From: Pseudomonadales bacterium
Lineage (GTDB): Bacteria > Pseudomonadota > Gammaproteobacteria > Pseudomonadales > Azotimanducaceae
Direction: 5' to 3'
NCBI GenBank assembly: GCA_046582185.1
Contig: JAYGEX010000033.1
Coordinates: 168 to 64,167 of the forward strand
DNA length: 64,000 nt
How positions within the stretch are numbered: the stretch's first letter is position 1; each line of letters begins with the position of its first letter. The position numbers were made by a program, and so were the translations under genes. The notes under the pieces were generated by a model. That model did not search any database. It was not told the origin of the DNA and saw only the letters and a program-made list of their open reading frames with translations. Positions 20,867-29,183 of the stretch are shown piece by piece.

Positions 20867-21625
20867 GTGAAAGAGATTAATTCAGTTGAGCAACTGGAAT
20901 CTTTTCTTGCAGGCCAGGAACAGTTCGGAAGTTTCGCCTTCAGCGAGTTTGAATGGCCAGAAGAATCAACTGATTATATCTTCAAACAATGTACTTTCCA
21001 TCAGATGATCTTCAGGGGGACCGAATGGCAGTCATGTGAGTTTACGGATTGTGAATTCGAACAATGTACTTTCGATTCCTCAAAACTTACCGACTGCCTG
21101 TTTCAGAAGTGCAAGTTCTATAACCCGGAGCTGGAAGCGGCTTGTTCTTTCAAGTTTGCTTCATTCCCTGGAACCACCTTTCGACAGTCTGACCTTTCTC
21201 TTTGCAATTTTAGCCGGTCAAATTTATACCGCATTGTTATCGACCAATGTCAGGCAACCGGAATGGATTGCTCTTATGCGACAGTTTCCCAGAGCATTGG
21301 CGGGTCACTGTCCTTAAACAGCGCCCGACTTTTCGACTGTAACTTCTCCTACGCGGATTTCACCGGCACCTGGTTATGCGAGGCAGAACTTCAAGAGAAC
21401 CGCTTTAGCCATGCGCTCTTCAACAGAGCAAACCTGGAAGGAGCGGAACTCAATGACTGTGATTTTCATGGCATTGAAGCAAAAGGCCTCACCATTGCCG
21501 GGGCTGACCTTAGAGGCGCTCAGATCTCTGGTCTCGACATCCGCGAAATTGATATGACCGGCGTAAGAATCAACGATTACCAGCAACGATTTTTATTGGA
21601 AGCGATTGGAATAGAAGTGGATTAA
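20867..21625 (+). CDS. pentapeptide-repeat protein (GTG start)
   Basis: Long runs of A(D/N)LxX-type pentads (FNRANLEGAELNDCDFHGIEAKGLTIAGADLRGAQISGLDI). Confidence 0.8.
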   Translation: MKEINSVEQLESFLAGQEQFGSFAFSEFEWPEESTDYIFKQCTFHQMIFRGTEWQSCEFTDCEFEQCTFDSSKLTDCLFQKCKFYNPELEAACSFKFASFPGTTFRQSDLSLCNFSRSNLYRIVIDQCQATGMDCSYATVSQSIGGSLSLNSARLFDCNFSYADFTGTWLCEAELQENRFSHALFNRANLEGAELNDCDFHGIEAKGLTIAGADLRGAQISGLDIREIDMTGVRINDYQQRFLLEAIGIEVD

Positions 21626-21705
21626 AACCCTCGTTTCGCTCGTTCAGCTTCTGTTCAACATTGGTCGAATATTCTGTTCTTCATTACGCGATGAGGGACA
21701 GAAAA

Positions 21706-22485
21706 ATGAAGCAAACACTCTTAGGATTAAACGACCCTGCCGCCAGAAACGACCCGCATAAGCTTCCGGGATTCCATCGCCCCAATGACCATTATTCGAA
21801 ATACCATTGTTCGGAATACACGGCACAGTTAGAAAGCCACTCATCGCGCTCAGGTTCAATACTCGGCAGCTTGTGCATGGTCACCTTTCTCTGCTTTTCT
21901 GTCAGCGCCTATGCCGATCATGGCCAGTCCAGGGGAAATTCATACTACACCTACGGGCAGGTCCTTGAAGTAGAACCAAACTATGTTCACTCAATCGAAT
22001 CAGTGCCTGAAAAGTCATGCACGCAAGTTCAGGTACGACAGACTCACCACAGACCTCACAGAAGAAGAGATGAAGGCACACTAATCCCATCTTTACTTGG
22101 AGGATTGCTTGGCGGGGTAATTGGCCACCAATTCGGCGGCGGCAATGGCAAGACGGCCCTCACGATTCTCGGCGCTTTCGCCGGTTCGAAAATCGCAAGC
22201 AGCAGCAACCATCATCACCAACATGATAGACATTCACAGGCGCGAGTCCGTGAACATTGCACCATCGTAGAGAGATGGGTTGAGACCACAAGAATCAAAA
22301 ACTATTCAGTGACCTATCGTTACAAGGGCAATGTGTTTACCAAAACAACACCTGAAAATCCCGGATCGCGAATCCGAATTCGTGTCCAGGTAGACCCTGT
22401 AGACAACTTGCTGGCACAAAACGATTCTCGTCAAAACTACTCTCGTCAAAACAACAGACGCTATACCTCTGGCAACACCTACTAA
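21706..22485 (+). CDS. glycine-zipper (Rick_17kDa_Anti/SlyB-like) envelope protein; start uncertain
   Basis: LIPSLLGGLLGGVIGHQFGGGNGKTALTILGAFAGSKIA Gly-zipper flanked by Cys-containing beta segments (YGQVLEVEP...C ; C.IVERWVE...YSVTYRYKGNVFT....PG.RIRIRV). ATG 21706 has GAGGGA upstream. The hydrophobic leader LCMVTFLCFSVSAYA sits ~55 aa in, so a later start (21877) is possible. Confidence 0.6.
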   Translation: MKQTLLGLNDPAARNDPHKLPGFHRPNDHYSKYHCSEYTAQLESHSSRSGSILGSLCMVTFLCFSVSAYADHGQSRGNSYYTYGQVLEVEPNYVHSIESVPEKSCTQVQVRQTHHRPHRRRDEGTLIPSLLGGLLGGVIGHQFGGGNGKTALTILGAFAGSKIASSSNHHHQHDRHSQARVREHCTIVERWVETTRIKNYSVTYRYKGNVFTKTTPENPGSRIRIRVQVDPVDNLLAQNDSRQNYSRQNNRRYTSGNTY

Positions 22486-22511: not shown

Positions 22512-23330
22512 ATGAAAGTTTATCTCACCCCTCACAGCCTCGCGAGTATCCTGCTGGCACTCAGCATTACAGGGACTGCAATGGCATCGCCAACAGGTCC
22601 GATAATGCGCCTGTTTCCAACCACTGTTCTGGAAGACATTCGTGAAACCAGCCTGGTGGCAGAAGAAATGGAAAACAATATTCAGGATGTGATTTCCCGG
22701 TTAGATCTGCAGCAACAGCTTTATAACGAATCTCACTGCGCTGGTGCAGATGAAGATCCAGGTTGCGAACGCATCGCCAAGCAAATCGGCGCTACCTATC
22801 TTGAGATGCTCGACATGATGACCAAGAAGTTACCAGACATGGAGCGAGCCGTAAATAATACGCGCAGCAGCCTGGAGAAACGCCTCAAAGTAGAATTAGG
22901 GCAAAAATCAACGCCAACCAGTCTGCAAAACTTACTATTAGGCAAGGTCGCCCAGAGCAAACCTACCGACAAACCAATGGCCCTGCGAGGTCGATCCGGC
23001 ATTCGACTCTCTGACCGCTTTAAGGAGTATTACGACCTCGTTGCCACTCGAAAGAACGGCGCAAATCAATCATTGGCAGTTATCGCATCCGATATCTATC
23101 TGGACATGGACGAGGCCGCCCGCCTTATCGCCGCGACCCAGGAAGAGATAAGCCGCGCAACCTTAATGGAACAGCTGAATCAATCCTTCGGACAAATCAC
23201 CCCGGAAATGTCCGAGGTCGTGAATGGAGTGAAGACTATTTTGTTCGGTGAGAATCTCGGCGATTCGCCCATCGCATCAGCCCCGTTTTTAGCGGGTGAA
23301 ACACCTTACATCAGTCCACTGGAATTTTAA
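22512..23330 (+). CDS. secreted all-helical protein of unknown function (operon gene 1)
   Basis: AGGAG RBS, signal peptide MKVYLTPHSLASILLALSITGTAMA, heptad-rich Q/E/L sequence. No family recognised. Confidence 0.6.
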   Translation: MKVYLTPHSLASILLALSITGTAMASPTGPIMRLFPTTVLEDIRETSLVAEEMENNIQDVISRLDLQQQLYNESHCAGADEDPGCERIAKQIGATYLEMLDMMTKKLPDMERAVNNTRSSLEKRLKVELGQKSTPTSLQNLLLGKVAQSKPTDKPMALRGRSGIRLSDRFKEYYDLVATRKNGANQSLAVIASDIYLDMDEAARLIAATQEEISRATLMEQLNQSFGQITPEMSEVVNGVKTILFGENLGDSPIASAPFLAGETPYISPLEF

Positions 23331-23341
23331 GGAGAACTAAC

Positions 23342-23920
23342 ATGAACAAATCATTCATTAACAAAACCATCATGAATATGAGATACATTTACATTTTACC
23401 TTTCCTGATCCTCGCATCAACCGCAATTACGTCCTGTACTACTACTGAAGTCGTGGACAATTGCGCCATAAACCTGAAAGGTTCGTTAGACAATGCGATC
23501 TACATCGCAGAAAGAAAATTATCCAGCGGCTGCGAATATAGCTTCGACAACTATCTGGGCCAGCTTCTGGCTATCGCCGCAGACAATCCAAGCCCTGACA
23601 ATAAACGGTCGTTCAGCGATTTCCTGATTCGTGCCAGCGACAATGGCACCATCAGCAAACGCCAGGCAAAGTCTACCTACAATCGCTACTTCAACATCAA
23701 ATTTGTATCCCTTGCTGGTGAGTACAATACATGCTCCCAGACCTGCCCCAGCAAAGCAAAAGTCCTTGCGGCTATGCGGCTGGAACTAAGGGACAAGGAA
23801 CTTGGACTAGTCAAGGCGAGCGACGATACCGCTTCCTACTATCGGGCTGATCATCTTCTGAAGGAAGTTGAATTGGTATTGGAAGCAACCTGTCGTGCTT
23901 GTGAAGCAGGCAGTTTGTAA
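23342..23920 (+). CDS. Cys-rich lipoprotein of unknown function (operon gene 2)
   Basis: AAGGAG 7 nt upstream. Lipobox ..LILASTAITS|C, plus six further Cys. Confidence 0.6.
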   Translation: MNKSFINKTIMNMRYIYILPFLILASTAITSCTTTEVVDNCAINLKGSLDNAIYIAERKLSSGCEYSFDNYLGQLLAIAADNPSPDNKRSFSDFLIRASDNGTISKRQAKSTYNRYFNIKFVSLAGEYNTCSQTCPSKAKVLAAMRLELRDKELGLVKASDDTASYYRADHLLKEVELVLEATCRACEAGSL

Positions 23921-24555
23921 TGGCTTCCGGCGTGGCGAGCTACATGGGGGGAGCCATTGCCGGTTTTGCAATGGGCCTACTCGCCATGCTGGTTTATTTA
24001 CCCTGGGAGGAGGTAGACCTGCTAGAAAGCATCAGCACCTGGCTGGTTCTAAACATGGGCCAATCAATTTGGCCATTTGGCACGGTACTTCTACTCTATA
24101 GCACTAATCTAATAAAACTAAGACGGCTCATCTCCGATAATGCTGCCTACAAGCATATCGTGCAACTGGATCAACTCAGCGATGTCTGGATTCATCTGTT
24201 TATAGGCATCGGTGTCATTTGGACTGCAATCGGAATGCGCAGTGCACTTTCCACCACCCTTGATTCTCCGGATGCACTCACGAATGGCGCTGGAGAAATA
24301 CTCTCTCGACTCGTTGATGGCGGCATTCTCCTGGCGCTTACAACAACAATTGTCGGCGCTATCGGCGGCTACCTTATGCAATTGACGAAGACATTTTCCC
24401 TGGGTGCGAGCCTTACCGGTTATTACCACGATGAAGAGCGCGGTGAGTTCAACATCTTGCTTGATCGCATTGGCAACATCGAATCACTGCTTTGCGAAGG
24501 ACCGCAGGTAAGCAGCAAAGCTGATGAGCGCGAGGCTTTAGCAGAAAATGCGTAG
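23920..24555 (+). CDS. MotA/TolQ/ExbB-family proton-channel-like protein, short form (operon gene 3)
   Basis: TAATG overlap. Three hydrophobic spans. LFIGIGVIWTAIGMRSAL ... DGGILLALTTTIVGAIGGYLM parallels ExbB/TolQ IGLLGTVWGIM ... GIAEAL.ATAIGL.AAIP. Confidence 0.6.
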   Translation: MASGVASYMGGAIAGFAMGLLAMLVYLPWEEVDLLESISTWLVLNMGQSIWPFGTVLLLYSTNLIKLRRLISDNAAYKHIVQLDQLSDVWIHLFIGIGVIWTAIGMRSALSTTLDSPDALTNGAGEILSRLVDGGILLALTTTIVGAIGGYLMQLTKTFSLGASLTGYYHDEERGEFNILLDRIGNIESLLCEGPQVSSKADEREALAENA

Positions 24556-25366
24556 GCACACTACCCACAAGCAACTTAATACCGCCGGACTTGAGGCCGA
24601 TGTAATGAGGTTTATGGCCATAATTGCCTTTTGCCTAATCGCCATTATGGCGCTGGTAAAAGATGTAGAGCCTCAGCTAGGTGTAGAGCCTCAGCCCGAT
24701 GTAAAGTCTCAGTCCGAGGTAACGACTGAAGCAATAGAAGATAGCAGTCATGAACCAGAGCCAAGCCTTGAATTAGTAACTGTTGTAAAGGCGCAAAAGC
24801 CATTAAAGCCTGAAGCAAAAACCTCTACCCAAGCAGTGAAGATTGGGAGCACGCGTGAGCGCACTTCAATATTATCAGCACCAGATATTTCAATACCAAT
24901 GCGTTCGCAAGTCATCGCCAATCATGACAATACAGTACAACCGGCATCAGTGAACGTGGCAGCCGAAGAGCAGCTCGAAGAAAGGGAAGAAGCGCTGACA
25001 TTTAGGTTTGACTCTGACTCAACCTTTATCCACCTGATAGGAAGTAAAAAGCTAAAACTTTTCGCCAGCACTCATGGCGCTTATCTTGAGATGGATGACA
25101 GGTTTAATGTCACCTCTTCCAGCCCCTCAGGGGAACTGTTTGAAATCATGAAGCAGTCCATTCCACGCACCATCACGACTATTTTTGAAAGGGAGTCAGG
25201 GTTTCACAAAGTGGATAGCTCACTAATTTACCTTGTCGCACTGTCGAAACGAACCAGGAATGACCTCGATCATTTCCTTGGCGCTAGTAACTCCAGGCAC
25301 AAAAAAAACCTGAACTCCGGCGTACTTGTAATCCATCAGGATGGACACATTAGTCATGAAACATAA
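24548..25366 (+). CDS. MotB/ExbD/TolR-like single-TM protein with Pro/Glu-rich linker and unknown C-terminal domain (operon gene 4)
   Basis: 8-nt overlap with the channel gene. GLEADVMRFMAIIAFCLIAIMALV places an Asp at the cytoplasmic end of the TM, as in MotB (YADFMTAMMAFF) and ExbD (IDVMLVLLIIF). A VEPQ-rich linker follows, then ~130 aa with no recognised fold. Confidence 0.5.
   Translation: MRRHTTHKQLNTAGLEADVMRFMAIIAFCLIAIMALVKDVEPQLGVEPQPDVKSQSEVTTEAIEDSSHEPEPSLELVTVVKAQKPLKPEAKTSTQAVKIGSTRERTSILSAPDISIPMRSQVIANHDNTVQPASVNVAAEEQLEEREEALTFRFDSDSTFIHLIGSKKLKLFASTHGAYLEMDDRFNVTSSSPSGELFEIMKQSIPRTITTIFERESGFHKVDSSLIYLVALSKRTRNDLDHFLGASNSRHKKNLNSGVLVIHQDGHISHET
24662..24715 (+). repeat. 18-bp in-frame tandem repeat x3 encoding DVEPQL/GVEPQP/DVKSQS
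   Basis: GATGTAGAGCCTCAGCTA / GGTGTAGAGCCTCAGCCC / GATGTAAAGTCTCAGTCC. Confidence 0.85.
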
Positions 25367-25460
25367 GAACAACCATGCGTTGAGCCATGCAAGCAACTAT
25401 CGGGCCATCTCTAACACTATCTATAATGCCAAAACCATCTCTAAAACTATCTCTAAAGTT

Positions 25461-26762
25461 ATGAAGGCATATGTATTTGGCTTGCTAATTTCCCTGCCGA
25501 CGATGCTCTACGCCGGGACTGTGATCGAAGGAGATCTCGGTGATTGGCTGGTTCAGGATGCAGCCCCAAAATTGAGTGAGGTGCTAACTCGCCATCCCCG
25601 ATTTAAGGGAAAGGCAATCAAAGTAACAGCAATGGAAGATGGATATCCTATCGAAGTCAGTGATGAGCTCACCCGACAGATCAAGGCACAGCTGGTGGAA
25701 AGCCTGTTATCCAACCCCGAAGTCAAAATTGTCTTTGGCGACAGTAACAGATGCCAACCCATCTCTGTGGATACGGTTCTTGGTATAGACGTGAACAAGA
25801 GATCCAACAATCGTTATCATGTCTCGATTGCCATGGTGGATATCGAGGAAGGTATCTGGCTGAGCGGTACCAATATTTCCTGGCAGGGTCGAGTCACGCC
25901 ACGTCAGAATCGCGCCTTTAATACTGCTTTTAGCAGCAGGGTTAACCAGCGACTATTTTCCAAAACTCAAAGTCGGGAAATTTCTGATTCACTGTATCTG
26001 CAGCTGCAATGTGGCGTTGAGATCCTCTCGCCGGTATATTTCAAGCCAGGAATTGATGGCACGAATTCAGAAGTACTTCGCTTGCTACAATCCCGGCTCG
26101 CCAACAACATGTCTACGACGCTTAATTTACGCGAAGCCGTTTCAGTTATCGGTATACAGGGTAAATCCAGGCAAAGCACCGGAAACGACTTTTATACCCT
26201 TGCCGTCACCTTATCTACGGCTGAAGACCCCGAGCAGGTACACCGTATCGCCGAAGTGAAAATTACCGGCAACACATTGCAACTTGCTCGAAATAATCCT
26301 GCAATTCCTGCAACAAGTAATCTGCTCTCTGATATCGGCATCGTCACAAAAAACAAGAGAGATGCACATTGCGGCCGTCGAGACAAACACTGCGTGGACA
26401 TAAGTTTCAAATTAAACGAAGCAGCTTATACCGTGCTGTTCTATTCCATCGGTGGCTATCTTGAGCCCCTGAATTGCGAGACGCCTCGCCGACAGAGAGC
26501 AGGCACTCAGCGTTATGGCTTGAAAATACCCAATAGTAATTCACCACTTGCGCCCAGCGTCGGCTTTTATGTTCTCGCCTTTAGGGATAAAGCAATCGCC
26601 GGACGAGTGAACAGAGTTCTGGCGAGCGGCGCAAAAAGTTGCAACCCACACGGCAAACGGCAACTCACTTCCTTTACCGACCTGCTGCAGCAGAACATTC
26701 ATCGTCTGGACTGGAAGGCGATCCACTTGAGCCGTTACAACAAGAGAATCATAGAATTATGA
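25461..26762 (+). CDS. 433-aa secreted protein of unknown function (operon gene 5)
   Basis: Signal peptide MKAYVFGLLISLPTMLYA. Alternative starts at 25356/25341 overlap the upstream gene. The C-terminal VDISFKLNEAAYTVLFYSIGGYLEPL...GFYVLAF is faintly DUF4384-like (unverified). Confidence 0.55.
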   Translation: MKAYVFGLLISLPTMLYAGTVIEGDLGDWLVQDAAPKLSEVLTRHPRFKGKAIKVTAMEDGYPIEVSDELTRQIKAQLVESLLSNPEVKIVFGDSNRCQPISVDTVLGIDVNKRSNNRYHVSIAMVDIEEGIWLSGTNISWQGRVTPRQNRAFNTAFSSRVNQRLFSKTQSREISDSLYLQLQCGVEILSPVYFKPGIDGTNSEVLRLLQSRLANNMSTTLNLREAVSVIGIQGKSRQSTGNDFYTLAVTLSTAEDPEQVHRIAEVKITGNTLQLARNNPAIPATSNLLSDIGIVTKNKRDAHCGRRDKHCVDISFKLNEAAYTVLFYSIGGYLEPLNCETPRRQRAGTQRYGLKIPNSNSPLAPSVGFYVLAFRDKAIAGRVNRVLASGAKSCNPHGKRQLTSFTDLLQQNIHRLDWKAIHLSRYNKRIIEL

Positions 26763-27397
26763 AAATATTCATTGGTATTGTACTTGGGCTCGTCATATCT
26801 GTTGGCCTCATGTCTATTCCCAAGTCTCGCCTCATGGTGCTCGGTACGCTTGCACAGCTGCGAGCTATACAACTGACCAGTTCCATAACAGCAAACGCCA
26901 AAACGGCAGACCCTGTGCTAACGGTTCCTGGGACAGCGATCCCTGAGACAGAAAAAGGTATCAGCGACATAAATATTTTGGACACAGGTATTTTCGAAAA
27001 AGACATTGTCAACAGGGCCATTAGCAAGGTTGCCACCAGCGAACCACTGGACGATGAACTCCCGGCCTTCAGGCACAATCAGGCGCCTGAAGGCCGACTA
27101 ATGCAGAGTCAAAAAGACAATTTTTTTGAGCGGGAAACCAACAATGTTATCGAGCTGCAAACCGAATTCTTTCAGGTGGTATGGACTCCATTCAGGAGCC
27201 AGATGTCAGCCCAGGGTTTTGCAGAAAAGCTGCAACGACAACTAGACCATGAATTTGTAATCATCAAAAGAGGGCCGGGAAAATATGAGGTCGGTTTCCA
27301 CTTCACGTCGGATGCCGCACGCTCTGATGTCCTCGATGCCATCGTTAACCTGACAGGATTCGCTTCCTCCAATCCACCCAGGGTCGTCCAATTGTGA
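26759..27397 (+). CDS. TM-anchored SPOR-domain (peptidoglycan-binding) protein (operon gene 6)
   Basis: ATGA overlap, N-terminal TM MKIFIGIVLGLVISVGLMSI. C-terminal FFQVVWTPFRSQMSAQGFAEKLQRQLDHEFVIIKRGPGKYEVGFHFTSDAARSDVLDAI fits the SPOR beta-alpha-beta-beta repeat pattern. Confidence 0.6.
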   Translation: MKIFIGIVLGLVISVGLMSIPKSRLMVLGTLAQLRAIQLTSSITANAKTADPVLTVPGTAIPETEKGISDINILDTGIFEKDIVNRAISKVATSEPLDDELPAFRHNQAPEGRLMQSQKDNFFERETNNVIELQTEFFQVVWTPFRSQMSAQGFAEKLQRQLDHEFVIIKRGPGKYEVGFHFTSDAARSDVLDAIVNLTGFASSNPPRVVQL

Positions 27398-28095
27398 AAA
27401 ATTTAACAATGATCCTGCTATTGATGATTCTGTCTGCCATGGCATCGGCATCGGGAAAAAATTACCCCTATATGGCATGTTTTGAAGTTGCCAGTCGTGC
27501 GCACGATATTGATCTTGACCTCTTGCTCGCGGTAGCAGCCGTAGAAAGTAACTGGAATGCCACGGCACGATCTGCTGCTAATGCACATGGGATAATGCAA
27601 ATTCGGTGGCCCCAAACCGCCAGGCATCTTGGCTCGAGGCGAGTGGCTGAACTCTATAATCCCTGCCTGAATATTGATCTGGGCGCACGATATATGCATG
27701 AACTGTCCCAGCGCTACAATGGCGATGTGCAGCTAATGCTTGCCGCATATAATTACGGACCCACTCGAATACAGACCATCGAAGACGTTCCCACAGGCGT
27801 GAATGCGTACGTTGAAAAGGTCAGTCGCAGGAGAAGCGAAATCTCTCGAAGCTTAAGAGCTTCAAACCCTGCTCATGCAAGCGATCGCATGGAGCTCTCA
27901 AGATTCCATAGCCTGAGTCGAGCTCAACATTACATGAAATCATTCGAACGTCTGGTTCCCGACATAGAGCTGTCGATTGAACACAGGAGAAATCAAAACA
28001 TCATTTATCTGGATAGCCGTAATCTTAGCGCTCAAGCGCTCTATCGCATCGGTGTGTTAATTCCGGAATTTGGAAATGGAGATAATAATCAATGA
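27394..28095 (+). CDS. lytic transglycosylase, SLT (family 1) domain, secreted (operon gene 7)
   Basis: GTGA overlap, signal peptide. LLLAVAAVESNWNATARSAANAHGIMQI (catalytic Glu in VES, GxMQ) and AAYNYGP. Confidence 0.85.
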   Translation: MKNLTMILLLMILSAMASASGKNYPYMACFEVASRAHDIDLDLLLAVAAVESNWNATARSAANAHGIMQIRWPQTARHLGSRRVAELYNPCLNIDLGARYMHELSQRYNGDVQLMLAAYNYGPTRIQTIEDVPTGVNAYVEKVSRRRSEISRSLRASNPAHASDRMELSRFHSLSRAQHYMKSFERLVPDIELSIEHRRNQNIIYLDSRNLSAQALYRIGVLIPEFGNGDNNQ

Positions 28096-28433
28096 AATTT
28101 TCCTTACTGGCACTACTTTGGGCATTGCTCATCCCTGCCGCCGCCTTCGCTGCAGAATTTTACGGAGAGGCTCAAGTCACAGGCTCGGTGCCCATATTGA
28201 AAACTGTCCAGAACCGTGAACAACGAGAAAACTGTCCGGCTATTAAGCCAACTAACGGCGGCCTGCTGGCGATGATCAACTGGGATCTGGCTAATCGTGA
28301 CTGTACAAAAGTGACCAGCAGACAAGTCATCAGCGCTTACAGGGTGAGTTATTTCTGGGACGATCAGAATTTCACCCGGATTTTTGCCAAACCTCCCGGC
28401 AATACAGTGCCCATCAAAATTTCAATTGATTAG
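28092..28433 (+). CDS. small secreted beta-rich protein, zipper-less paralog of the 21706-22485 product (operon gene 8)
   Basis: ATGA overlap, signal peptide. FYGEAQVTGSVPI...C ... C.KVTSRQVISAYRVSYFWDDQNFT.....PGNTVPIKISI aligns with YGQVLEVEPNY...C ... C.IVERWVETTRIKNYSVTYRYKGNVFT.....PGSRIRIRVQV. Confidence 0.6.
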   Translation: MKFSLLALLWALLIPAAAFAAEFYGEAQVTGSVPILKTVQNREQRENCPAIKPTNGGLLAMINWDLANRDCTKVTSRQVISAYRVSYFWDDQNFTRIFAKPPGNTVPIKISID

Positions 28434-29183
28434 GCTAACTTCCTTAATTTCCAGCAATTCCACTTCAAATATCAGCACAGCATTAGGCGGGATACCTCGC
28501 GTGCCTCCAGGGCCATAACCTAGCTCCGAGGGGATCACAAAGCGTGTCTTGCCACCCACCCGCATCAGTTGCAAACCCTCGGTCCAGCCGGCAATAACCT
28601 GATTGAGGCCAAATTCTGCGGGGGTACCACGCTTTATGGAACTATCAAACACCTTTCCGCTGATCAGCTGGCCTTCATAGTGAACAACCACCTTGCTCTC
28701 GGATTTTGGCCGAGCGCCCTTACCTTCTACAAGAGTTTCATACTGCAATCCCGATGATGTTGTTTTAACGTTTGGCTTCAATGCATTTTCAGCAAGATAG
28801 ACCTTGCCCTGCCCAATACCCTCAGCGGCTATCCTGTTACGTTCATTTTCCTTCTCTTCCTTAAGTGCTTGTTGTCGCAAACGAATCTCCTTAACGACAC
28901 CCTGTTGCTGTTCAGGCTCTAGATTGGGAAGTTCTCCGGCGATGGAATCATTTAGCCCCTGCAACAACATTTCAAGGTTAACGTCTGTATTACCACCTTC
29001 TTTGAGCATATTTCCAAAGGAATATCCAAAGAAATAGCCACGCTCATTCTTCAAGCTGGTATCCGCAGCCGCGGGCTCAGCGGGACTTTCTTCTGCCCAG
29101 ATGGGGTAAGAAGACATTAAACAAATAAGCACTAAGCCATTGATTATTAATGATTTACTATACATCGGCAAAAAGTTCCACAA
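28422..29183 (-). CDS. periplasmic FKBP-type peptidyl-prolyl isomerase (FkpA/FklB-like)
   Basis: Signal peptide, FKBP_N-like helical part, then VVHYEGQLISGKVFDSS...GLNQVIAGWTEGLQLMRVGGK..FVIPSELGYG...IPPNAVLIFEVELLEI. Its 3' end overlaps gene 8 by 12 nt (convergent). Confidence 0.9.
   Translation of the reverse strand: MWNFLPMYSKSLIINGLVLICLMSSYPIWAEESPAEPAAADTSLKNERGYFFGYSFGNMLKEGGNTDVNLEMLLQGLNDSIAGELPNLEPEQQQGVVKEIRLRQQALKEEKENERNRIAAEGIGQGKVYLAENALKPNVKTTSSGLQYETLVEGKGARPKSESKVVVHYEGQLISGKVFDSSIKRGTPAEFGLNQVIAGWTEGLQLMRVGGKTRFVIPSELGYGPGGTRGIPPNAVLIFEVELLEIKEVSLIN

Follow-up and report, generated by a model that had tools for sequence, protein, structure and literature searches.

The 64,000-nucleotide (nt) stretch of a Pseudomonadales bacterium genome analyzed here (contig JAYGEX010000033.1, positions 168–64,167; hereafter, the window) contains two overlapping genes, g3 and g4, that belong to a nine-gene operon (g0–g8) and encode a candidate ring subunit and a candidate axle-plus-tether subunit, respectively. 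Our tentative reading is that the two proteins form a sequence-orphan, probably proton-motive force (PMF)-coupled inner-membrane module that drives or positions a peptidoglycan- or outer-membrane-associated machine. The further-reaching idea that g3/g4 represent a previously unrecognized, sequence-orphan class of ion-driven envelope motor, powering a nine-gene machine, is possible but doubtful. An earlier note on this DNA had described g3 as a MotA/ExbB-like channel and g4 as its partner; the organization like a stator survives our analysis, whereas the MotA/ExbB likeness by sequence does not. The genes and their families, the overlap of the pair, the invariant Asp/Arg helix of g4, the conservation pattern and the operon are established by direct observation.

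Conservation and topology of the g3/g4 pair

The open reading frames (ORFs) of g3 (211 aa) and g4 (272 aa) overlap by 8 nt, and the start codon of g3 has one base in common with the stop codon of g2. Both ORFs lie where the earlier note had placed them, and every peptide it quoted is present: LFIGIGVIWTAIGMRSAL spans g3 residues 93–110, GGILLALTTTIVGAIGGYLM spans g3 residues 134–153, and the N-terminus of g4 reads MRRHTTHKQLNTAGLEADVMRFMAIIAFCLIAIMALVKDVEPQLGVEPQPDVKSQSEV. The NCBI entries for g1–g4 of the window (VB957_13180 to VB957_13195) are labeled ‘hypothetical protein’ and belong to a Pseudomonadales metagenome-assembled genome (MAG). A 90%-identity protein collection holds 2943 g3 relatives at E ≤ 1e-3, which, among the 120 matches listed, are unnamed or ‘hypothetical’ and have no precomputed Pfam domain. 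Clustered at 50% identity, the g4 relatives retrieved by an exhaustive profile search number 945 at E ≤ 1e-3, of which 746 reach E ≤ 1e-10. Wherever a locus is long enough to include the two genes, g4 lies directly downstream of g3. The Asp codon of g4 falls a median of 44 nt past the g3 stop codon (minimum 19; 81 loci), so that, with a cytoplasmic tail of ~17 residues, the two genes overlap or abut. We conclude that g3 and g4 are genuine genes and not chance ORFs.

The most conserved part of g4 is its single transmembrane (TM) helix, which has its N-terminus in the cytoplasm (N-in) and carries an Asp at its cytoplasmic end, as the earlier note had proposed. An AlphaFold2 (AF2) model places this helix at residues 13–40. 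Among 257 non-redundant g4 relatives, the position of Asp18 is Asp in 243 of the 243 that cover the segment, which bears out the claim of a conserved aspartate; the remaining 14 are gene calls that lack the N-terminus or ORFs that extend too far. The helix consensus is L-Q/E-A/T-D-V-M-R-F-M-A-I-I-A-F-C-L-I-A-I-L-A-L-V-R/K, and the corresponding logo reads L100, Q/E, A/T, D100, V100, M100, R100, F100, M92, A98, I100, I81, A91, F90, C98 and L98, closing with V92 and R/K. From the Asp (position 0) to position +12, conservation is 81–100%, mostly at least 98%, and extends over every helical face, as expected for a helix wholly enclosed by protein. The Asp is followed by 19 mainly hydrophobic residues and then by Arg/Lys, the layout of a single N-in TM segment.

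The AF2 model of g3, built on a 34-sequence alignment with a mean predicted local distance difference test (pLDDT) score of 85, is all-helical, with helices at residues 2–26, 34–72, 77–115 and 124–193, the last one 70 residues long. Four TM helices are predicted, of which the last two reach into the cytoplasm; the charge distribution is consistent with an N-in/C-in topology, and TM2 and TM3 are spaced by ~25 residues. The near-invariant motifs FxGxGVxWTAxGMRxAL and LVDGGILLALTTTIVGAxGGYLM mark the TM3–TM4 hairpin. Residues T102, D133, T143 and G96/98/105/134/135/146/149 are invariant, T142 is nearly so, and Pro is absent throughout TM3 (res. 89–110) and TM4 (res. 132–155) in the family alignment. 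The invariant T102 and T143 are candidate counterparts of T145/T178 of TolQ, in a family in which Thr residues of the inner helices face the Asp of the partner. The earlier description of g3 as a small polytopic protein whose TM hairpin is highly conserved holds.

The conservation of g3/g4 closely parallels that of TolQ/TolR. In g3, the major-residue frequency is 0.46 in TM1, 0.60 in TM2, 0.89 in TM3 and 0.92 in TM4, and segment conservation in g4 is 0.87 for the TM helix, 0.23 for the linker and 0.43 for the head. The identical calculation gave 0.61, 0.83 and 0.91 for TM1, TM2 and TM3 of TolQ, and 0.85 and 0.44 for the TM helix and the periplasmic part of TolR. By comparison, g6, an ordinary membrane anchor of the g0–g8 operon, scores 0.46 in its TM helix and 0.45 in its SPOR-like domain. 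The pattern seen in g3/g4 matches that of a putative buried intramembrane core and not that of an anchor.

Past the membrane, g4 continues into a linker that measures ~110 residues in the window protein (15% Glu, 11% Val, 11% Ser, 9% Pro) and 45–193 residues across the family (median 104; 21% Pro, 16% Ala, 12% Glu, 9% Val). The composition is TonB-like, with a Pro-rich spacer of the kind found in TonB/TolA. The TonB-style linker described previously is thus confirmed as Pro/Ala/Glu-rich, disordered and variable in length, but it spans ~110 residues instead of the ~60 first given. Linkers of this type are common in inner-membrane-anchored periplasmic proteins, and g6 also carries one. The C-terminal head has the secondary-structure order b-a-b-b-b-b-a-b-a-b-b (AF2; a, helix; b, strand) and, at ~124 residues (149–272), is the domain that the earlier note could not assign; it is equally orphan here. 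Foldseek comparison of the g4 model with the PDB returned nothing at E ≤ 1e-3 and no ExbD, TolR, OmpA or TonB match. The best hits for the head (E = 0.5, template-modeling score (TM-score) ~0.1) are GHKL ATPases and ribosomal proteins. Pfam scans of 27 g4 family members left the head without a match, and neither Pfam nor Foldseek found a TonB_C or TolA_C domain in g4.

Relation of g3/g4 to known stator families

Judged by sequence, g3 and g4 lie outside the MotA/ExbB and ExbD/MotB families; they would be either a branch that has diverged extremely far or a solution reached independently. Scans of g3 and g4, as single sequences and member by member, found nothing significant in Pfam, NCBIfam, PADLOC or PHROGs. 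MotA_ExbB is the commonest weak Pfam match among g3 members (5/34, best E = 0.031). The three such matches with coordinates place the TM3–TM4 hairpin on profile positions ~40–111 of 127 and score 6.8–10.4 bits against a gathering score of 22.9 (PF01618), and unrelated TM families (DUF973, DUF4064) equal or beat the MotA_ExbB score on g3 members. The window g3 has no PF01618 match, and none in NCBIfam. The earlier note had made its MotA/ExbB reading of g3 depend, in advance, on a significant MotA_ExbB profile match; there is none, and we abandon that assignment. For g4, no ExbD, MotB_plug or OmpA match was found in the window protein and 27 members, even at E ≤ 10; TonB_C matched 0/27 members, and TonB_N matched just one, at E = 0.84. 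The g3 family profile found nothing among PDB sequences even at E ≤ 10, and neither g3 nor g4 matched the Gld/Por families in Pfam.

Profile–profile comparisons used E. coli tolQRA, exbBD and motAB together with 80 metagenomic tolQ–tolR loci, from which alignments of 76 TolQ/ExbB and 66 TolR/ExbD sequences were built; the g3 profile contained 85 sequences. With hhalign, g3 aligned to TolQ/ExbB with a probability of 0.4%, similar to the reversed alignment, and g4 to TolR/ExbD with 0.35%. The family profiles reached at most 3% against single E. coli TolQ, ExbB, MotA and MotB sequences, and MotA versus TolQ was clearly detected by the identical method. A hairpin-versus-hairpin comparison places GILLALTTTIVG opposite GIAEALIATAIG with a score of 12.1, within the column-shuffled null of 11.2 ± 2.6 (33/100 shuffles at or above), and the resemblance to the signature helices of ExbB/TolQ that had been noted for g3 dissolves on this measure. 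In the best local alignments of g4 with MotB and with TolR/ExbD, Asp18 falls on the functional Asp both times, as in the full-length MotB comparison that sets EADVMRFMAIIAFCLI against YADFMTAM--MAFFLV (probability 1.4%). The proposed Asp register is therefore reproduced, but without significance, and the TM similarity of g4 to ExbD/TolR and MotB is not above the shuffled null. When all 6630 ORFs from the fetched loci were searched with hidden Markov models of TolQ/ExbB/MotA and TolR/ExbD/MotB, g3 and g4 stayed in the noise. No TolQ/ExbB sequences were found in a viral-contig scan, and no canonical tolQ, exbB, motA, tolR or exbD gene is present anywhere in the window. We read the resemblance of g3/g4 to stator motifs as a chance outcome for two Gly/Ala/Thr-rich TM helices.

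At the level of fold, Foldseek comparison of the g3 model with the PDB found nothing at E ≤ 1e-3. The order of the matches is nevertheless non-random: TolQ chains hold ranks 1, 2 and 4, and TolQ/ExbB/ZorA occupy 21 of the top 50 places (E 0.3–2, TM-score ~0.3). The ZorA chain 8vvi_C (99 residues) superimposes on g3 with a target-normalized TM-score of 0.64 and a root-mean-square deviation of 4.3 Å; none of these matches is significant. Because generic helical bundles score similarly, we take this ranking as a weak hint.

ExbB–ExbD–TonB and TolQ–TolR–TolA are 5:2 motors that are driven by the PMF and rely on a distinct force transducer in the periplasm. They provide the closest architecture to g3/g4, which differ in uniting axle and tether in one chain. 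Both systems and g3/g4 combine a small polytopic protein, in which conservation peaks in the final two TM helices, with an N-in single-pass partner that is encoded by an adjacent or overlapping gene and carries an invariant Asp at the cytoplasmic end of its extremely conserved helix. A Pro-rich periplasmic spacer is common to them, as are operon partners that are periplasmic, lipoproteins or peptidoglycan-associated. Unlike these systems, g3/g4 have no significant sequence or fold match to them; g3 has four TM helices versus three in ExbB/TolQ and is almost devoid of a cytoplasmic domain between TM2 and TM3; the inner helices of g3 lack the conserved Pro; and an invariant Arg follows the Asp of g4. 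The tether is borne by the Asp-carrying g4 itself and not by a third protein. The TM helix of TonB/TolA carries an SHLS/His motif and docks on the outside of the motor (PMC12204202). The g4 helix has no such motif, and the g4 head is not a TonB, TolA or ExbD domain.

Other stators share individual features with the pair. As in MotA–MotB and PomA–PomB, the A subunit has four TM helices in an N-in/C-in arrangement and the A and B genes overlap; as in MotB, the Asp lies near the cytoplasmic end of the helix (EADVMRFM...AFCLI compared with YADFMTAM..MAFFLV) and a disordered linker follows the TM segment. In GldM/PorM, of the type IX secretion motor, the axle role and a long reach are combined in one polypeptide, and the one-chain axle and tether of g4 are therefore not unprecedented. 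The GldM axle helix has a charged residue, Arg9. GldL–GldM and PorL–PorM thus resemble g3/g4 in the long periplasmic reach of the axle subunit, in an A subunit of ~200 residues and, for GldL–GldM, in the axle-helix Arg and the absence of detectable sequence similarity to MotAB. They differ in that GldL has two TM helices, GldM has folded periplasmic domains instead of a disordered tether and no TM Asp, and the host lineage is Bacteroidota, not Gammaproteobacteria.

A second precedent comes from the ‘transpore-helix-vWA’ proteins predicted in 2025, in which a TolR-like Asp helix and a linker precede a foreign head domain, and whose genes adjoin tolQ-like genes without a tolR partner (PMC12204202). 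Given GldM/PorM and these proteins, the description of a single axle-and-reach polypeptide as ‘unusual’ was overstated. Like g4, a transpore-helix-vWA protein joins the Asp helix, a linker and a non-ExbD head in one chain with no separate tolR or exbD; unlike g3/g4, in which neither partner is recognizable and the head is orphan, its A subunit is a recognizable TolQ homologue and its head a vWA domain. A 2025 survey of non-flagellar MotAB relatives emphasizes how structurally plastic these ‘generic ion transporters’ are (PMC12505986). ZorA–ZorB is likewise a non-flagellar stator-like pair, and a ZorA chain is among the top, non-significant Foldseek matches of g3. However, g3 lacks the long ZorA tail, ZorC/ZorD-type effectors are missing and the genes sit in an envelope operon. 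We dismissed a Zorya reading, as PADLOC matches none of g1–g8 (eight proteins scanned) and the operon partners are envelope proteins. What is new in g3/g4 is that both partners are unrecognizable, the A-like subunit is minimal, an invariant Arg occupies Asp+3 and the head is orphan.

A candidate PMF-coupled module and its alternatives

In the reading that we tentatively favor, g3 and g4 would assemble into one tightly coupled, membrane-embedded inner-membrane complex, probably the energy-coupling module of the g0–g8 machine. Several copies of g3 would enclose the invariant g4 TM helix by means of their near-invariant, Gly/Thr-rich TM3–TM4 hairpins, with Asp18 positioned at the cytoplasmic mouth and paired with the invariant Arg21 one helical turn away. 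PMF-driven protonation and deprotonation of Asp18 would make g4 rotate or change conformation relative to g3, and this movement would pass along the 45–193-residue Pro/Ala/Glu-rich tether to the novel 115–125-residue head. The head may engage periplasmic, peptidoglycan or outer-membrane partners, namely g1, g2, g5, the SPOR-like g6 and the SLT transglycosylase g7. The function would be analogous to that of ExbBD–TonB, TolQRA or GldLM, with axle and tether in a single polypeptide. Complex formation, stoichiometry, ion flow and force transmission are features that we infer for the pair. g3/g4 are the sole polytopic inner-membrane module of the operon, which encodes no ATPase, kinase or other cytoplasmic protein; an active periplasmic process would therefore need PMF coupling via g3/g4.

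Several observations weigh against this assignment. Neither protein has significant sequence similarity to any known stator family, and the Foldseek TM-scores of g3 against TolQ and ExbB are ~0.3. The conserved prolines of the MotA/ExbB inner helices, those of ‘SPY/F-I/V-GLFGTVWG’ and ‘AIPA’ in TolQ/ExbB and P173 and P222 in MotA, are lacking in g3. The g4 head fits no ExbD, OmpA or TonB fold. An Arg at Asp+3 is absent from E. coli MotB, ExbD and TolR, and Arg21 could neutralize Asp18 through a static salt bridge.

The main rival is a passive inner-membrane scaffold, in which a stable g3/g4 complex would only anchor and position the g4 head and, through it, the g1/g2/g5/g6/g7 assembly with no ion flow, and Asp18–Arg21 would be a structural salt bridge or an interfacial assembly motif. 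The absence of detectable homology to any ion-driven motor, the potentially neutralizing Arg one turn from Asp18, the location of Asp18 at the very edge of the hydrophobic stretch and the Gly-rich TM3 and TM4 of g3, which are also typical of static tight packing, all agree with a scaffold. However, the ~20 consecutive near-invariant TM positions of g4, together with two near-invariant helices of g3, far exceed what an anchor needs, as the value of 0.46 for the g6 anchor illustrates. A polar pathway is suggested by the invariant Thr, Asp and Arg residues located within or next to the g3 hairpin, and no other source of energy is encoded in the operon. On balance, we regard the scaffold as a serious but unlikely explanation.

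Alternatively, g3/g4 could be a transmembrane regulator or sensor of cell-wall remodeling that perceives an envelope or cytoplasmic cue and controls g7 and g6 allosterically through the g4 head, comparable to the FtsEX–EnvC or Tol–Pal control of hydrolases and not to a rotary motor. The SLT enzyme and the SPOR-like protein are always in the operon, and the conserved cytoplasmic C-terminal helix of g3 could take the input. Against such a role, Pfam and NCBIfam reveal no recognizable sensor or signaling domain in any of the nine proteins, and no partner regulator is conserved in the flanks, which vary among genomes; we consider it improbable. We give similarly little credence to a special case of the motor hypothesis, that g3/g4 are true but extremely diverged members of the MotA/ExbB–TolQ and MotB/ExbD–TolR superfamily. 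All similarity signals are within noise, the same procedure clearly detects MotA versus TolQ, and g3 lacks both the conserved prolines and a G-T-V-W-G-type motif.

The least credible alternative is a domesticated phage-lysis-like cassette, in which g3 would be the holin, g7 the endolysin, and g4 and g2 the spanins of the inner membrane and (as a lipoprotein) of the outer membrane, respectively. The parts match superficially, in that g3 is small and polytopic, g4 is a type II membrane protein, g2 is a small lipoprotein and g7 is an SLT enzyme with PHROG endolysin and tail-lysin matches. However, the PHROGs match the generic SLT domain alone, none of g2, g3 and g4 belongs to a PHROG holin or spanin family, the sampled species genomes all keep the nine-gene order, with ordinary metabolic genes in the differing flanks, the periplasmic part of g4 is a disordered Pro-rich linker with a globular domain and not a coiled coil, and there are no plasmid matches. 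We rejected this cassette on the PHROG result and the synteny.

To our knowledge, ion-driven stator units (MotAB, ExbBD, TolQR, GldLM, ZorAB) are the known Gram-negative route of energy to the periplasm and outer membrane, and we know of no newly found stator family that has not revealed a new envelope process. The g3/g4 pair is the only plausible energy input of a wholly unannotated nine-gene operon. It was missed by Pfam, NCBIfam, PADLOC and sequence and fold searches of solved structures, yet it has motor-like conservation and gene organization. If g3/g4 are a motor, the stator class extends past the reach of homology searches, and mechanistic studies would gain an A subunit that is minimal by nature, at ~200 residues, and a natural case of axle and tether in a single chain. 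If their role is confined to scaffolding, the operon remains a substantial portion of envelope ‘dark matter’, tied to peptidoglycan remodeling, in lineages known from MAGs alone.

The nine-gene operon and its genomic setting

The nine genes and the segments of g3 and g4 are listed in Table 1. Iterated profiles of the nine window proteins were searched against the ORFs of 83 fetched loci and the window. The order g0-g1-g2-g3-g4-g5-g6-g7-g8 is kept wherever the contig is long enough, the sole variation being the placement of g0 at the 3′ end, after g7, in a few Ectothiorhodospiraceae-type loci; g0 takes the cluster-first position in most of 84 tabulated loci. The genes flanking g0–g8 differ among genomes, which makes the cluster a self-contained unit. 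A signal peptide, a lipobox or TM helices are present in each of the nine products. In Pfam, g7 and g0 alone score at or above a gathering threshold; the other seven products do not.

Table 1 Coordinates of the g0–g8 cluster and of the g3 and g4 segments in the window
Feature	Coordinates	Strand	Description
g0, glycine-zipper (Rick_17kDa_Anti/YcfJ-like) envelope protein	21661..22485	+	First gene of the conserved cluster
g1, secreted 272-aa protein	22512..23330	+	Signal-peptide-like N-terminus; most conserved operon protein
g2, Cys-rich lipoprotein	23342..23920	+	Lipobox ...ITSC (family consensus AGC); invariant C-x3-C-P and C-x2-C
g3, candidate ring (‘A’) subunit	23920..24555	+	Inner-membrane, 4 TM, N-in/C-in, long C-terminal cytoplasmic helix
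g3 TM3–loop–TM4 hairpin, residues 89–155	24184..24384	+	Near-invariant motifs
g4, candidate axle-plus-tether (‘B’) subunit	24548..25366	+	Bitopic, N-in, 272 aa
g4 TM helix, residues 15–38	24590..24661	+	Asp18 (24599–24601) and Arg21 (24608–24610) invariant
g4 periplasmic tether, residues 39–148	24662..24991	+	Disordered; AF2 pLDDT ~41–56 per 10-residue block
g4 C-terminal alpha/beta head, residues 149–272	24992..25363	+	AF2 pLDDT mostly >90 (blocks 76–97)
g5, large secreted protein	25461..26762	+	6 invariant Cys, several invariant Trp
g6, bitopic, SPOR-like C-terminal domain	26759..27397	+	Poorly conserved TM anchor, Pro-containing variable linker
g7, secreted SLT-family lytic transglycosylase	27394..28095	+	Pfam PF01464, E = 3.6e-26
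g8, small secreted protein, last gene of the cluster	28092..28433	+	Related to the non-zipper g0/YcfJ domain

The first gene, g0, matches Pfam PF05433 (E = 5.4e-7) and NCBIfam PRK11280 (E = 1.8e-21, below its cut-off), and its true start is probably internal to the ORF. The last gene, g8, has a weak PRK11280 match, and in several loci the gene that occupies the g0 position is matched by the g8 profile as well; g0 and g8 have a YcfJ-like domain in common, with a glycine-zipper segment extra in g0. Across 22 diverse loci, g1 averages 57% column identity and has more than 100 invariant columns, with RGRSGxRLSDRF and two conserved Cys among them, and the protein has no Pfam, NCBIfam or PDB match; conservation at this level suggests a catalytic or central structural role. 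In g2, some of the seven invariant cysteines (C32, C41, C64, C131, C135, C184 and C187) lie in the motifs C-S-Q-T-C-P and C-R-A-C. The protein lacks a CxxCH haem motif and a family match by Pfam, NCBIfam or PDB profile, and may be disulfide-rich or metal-binding.

Downstream of g4, the listed ORF of g5 starts at 25341, with a signal-peptide-like start, MKAYVFGLL, at 25461; no Pfam or PDB match was found for this protein. Matches of g6 to the Pfam SPOR family occur in 5/18 orthologues (best E = 7.7e-4), and a PDB sequence-profile search returned nothing; g6 would bind peptidoglycan through this domain. The transglycosylase g7 is found in the cluster in other loci too.

In a scan of one genome per GTDB species, 366 genomes carry a g3 relative. 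The best 80 of these 366 are all MAGs, labeled Pseudomonadales, Candidatus Azotimanducaceae, Woeseiaceae, Ectothiorhodospiraceae, Sedimenticolaceae or unclassified Gammaproteobacteria; a tblastn search of plasmids gave no g3 match. One contig (CAXPUI010000232.1) includes g1–g7 and stops short of g8; its bin is named ‘Candidatus Fonsibacter ubiquis’, an alphaproteobacterium. The remaining carriers are all labeled Gammaproteobacteria or just broadly (Proteobacteria/Pseudomonadota, ‘bacterium’), and this contig is probably mis-binned.

A scan of the operon for promoters and terminators gave no site beyond what shuffled sequence would yield. At the downstream end, a convergent gene on the minus strand (28422–29183), which encodes a putative FKBP-type peptidyl-prolyl isomerase, overlaps the 3′ end of g8 by 12 nt, and no terminator-like site was found between the two genes. 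Just upstream of the operon, positions 20867–21625 encode a Qnr-like pentapeptide-repeat protein. Its NCBIfam Qnr match (E = 4.4e-37, 128 bits) falls short of the 240-bit cut-off; the protein is therefore a chromosomal relative of Qnr and not a named resistance allele. Finally, positions 25405–25456 hold two copies of a 22-nt direct repeat, CCATCTCTAAcACTATCTaTAA, that are 91% identical and 30 nt apart. The repeat sits in the ~94-nt gap from the g4 stop codon to the likely g5 start and, because this gap is the only sizeable one inside the operon, it could be a regulatory element.

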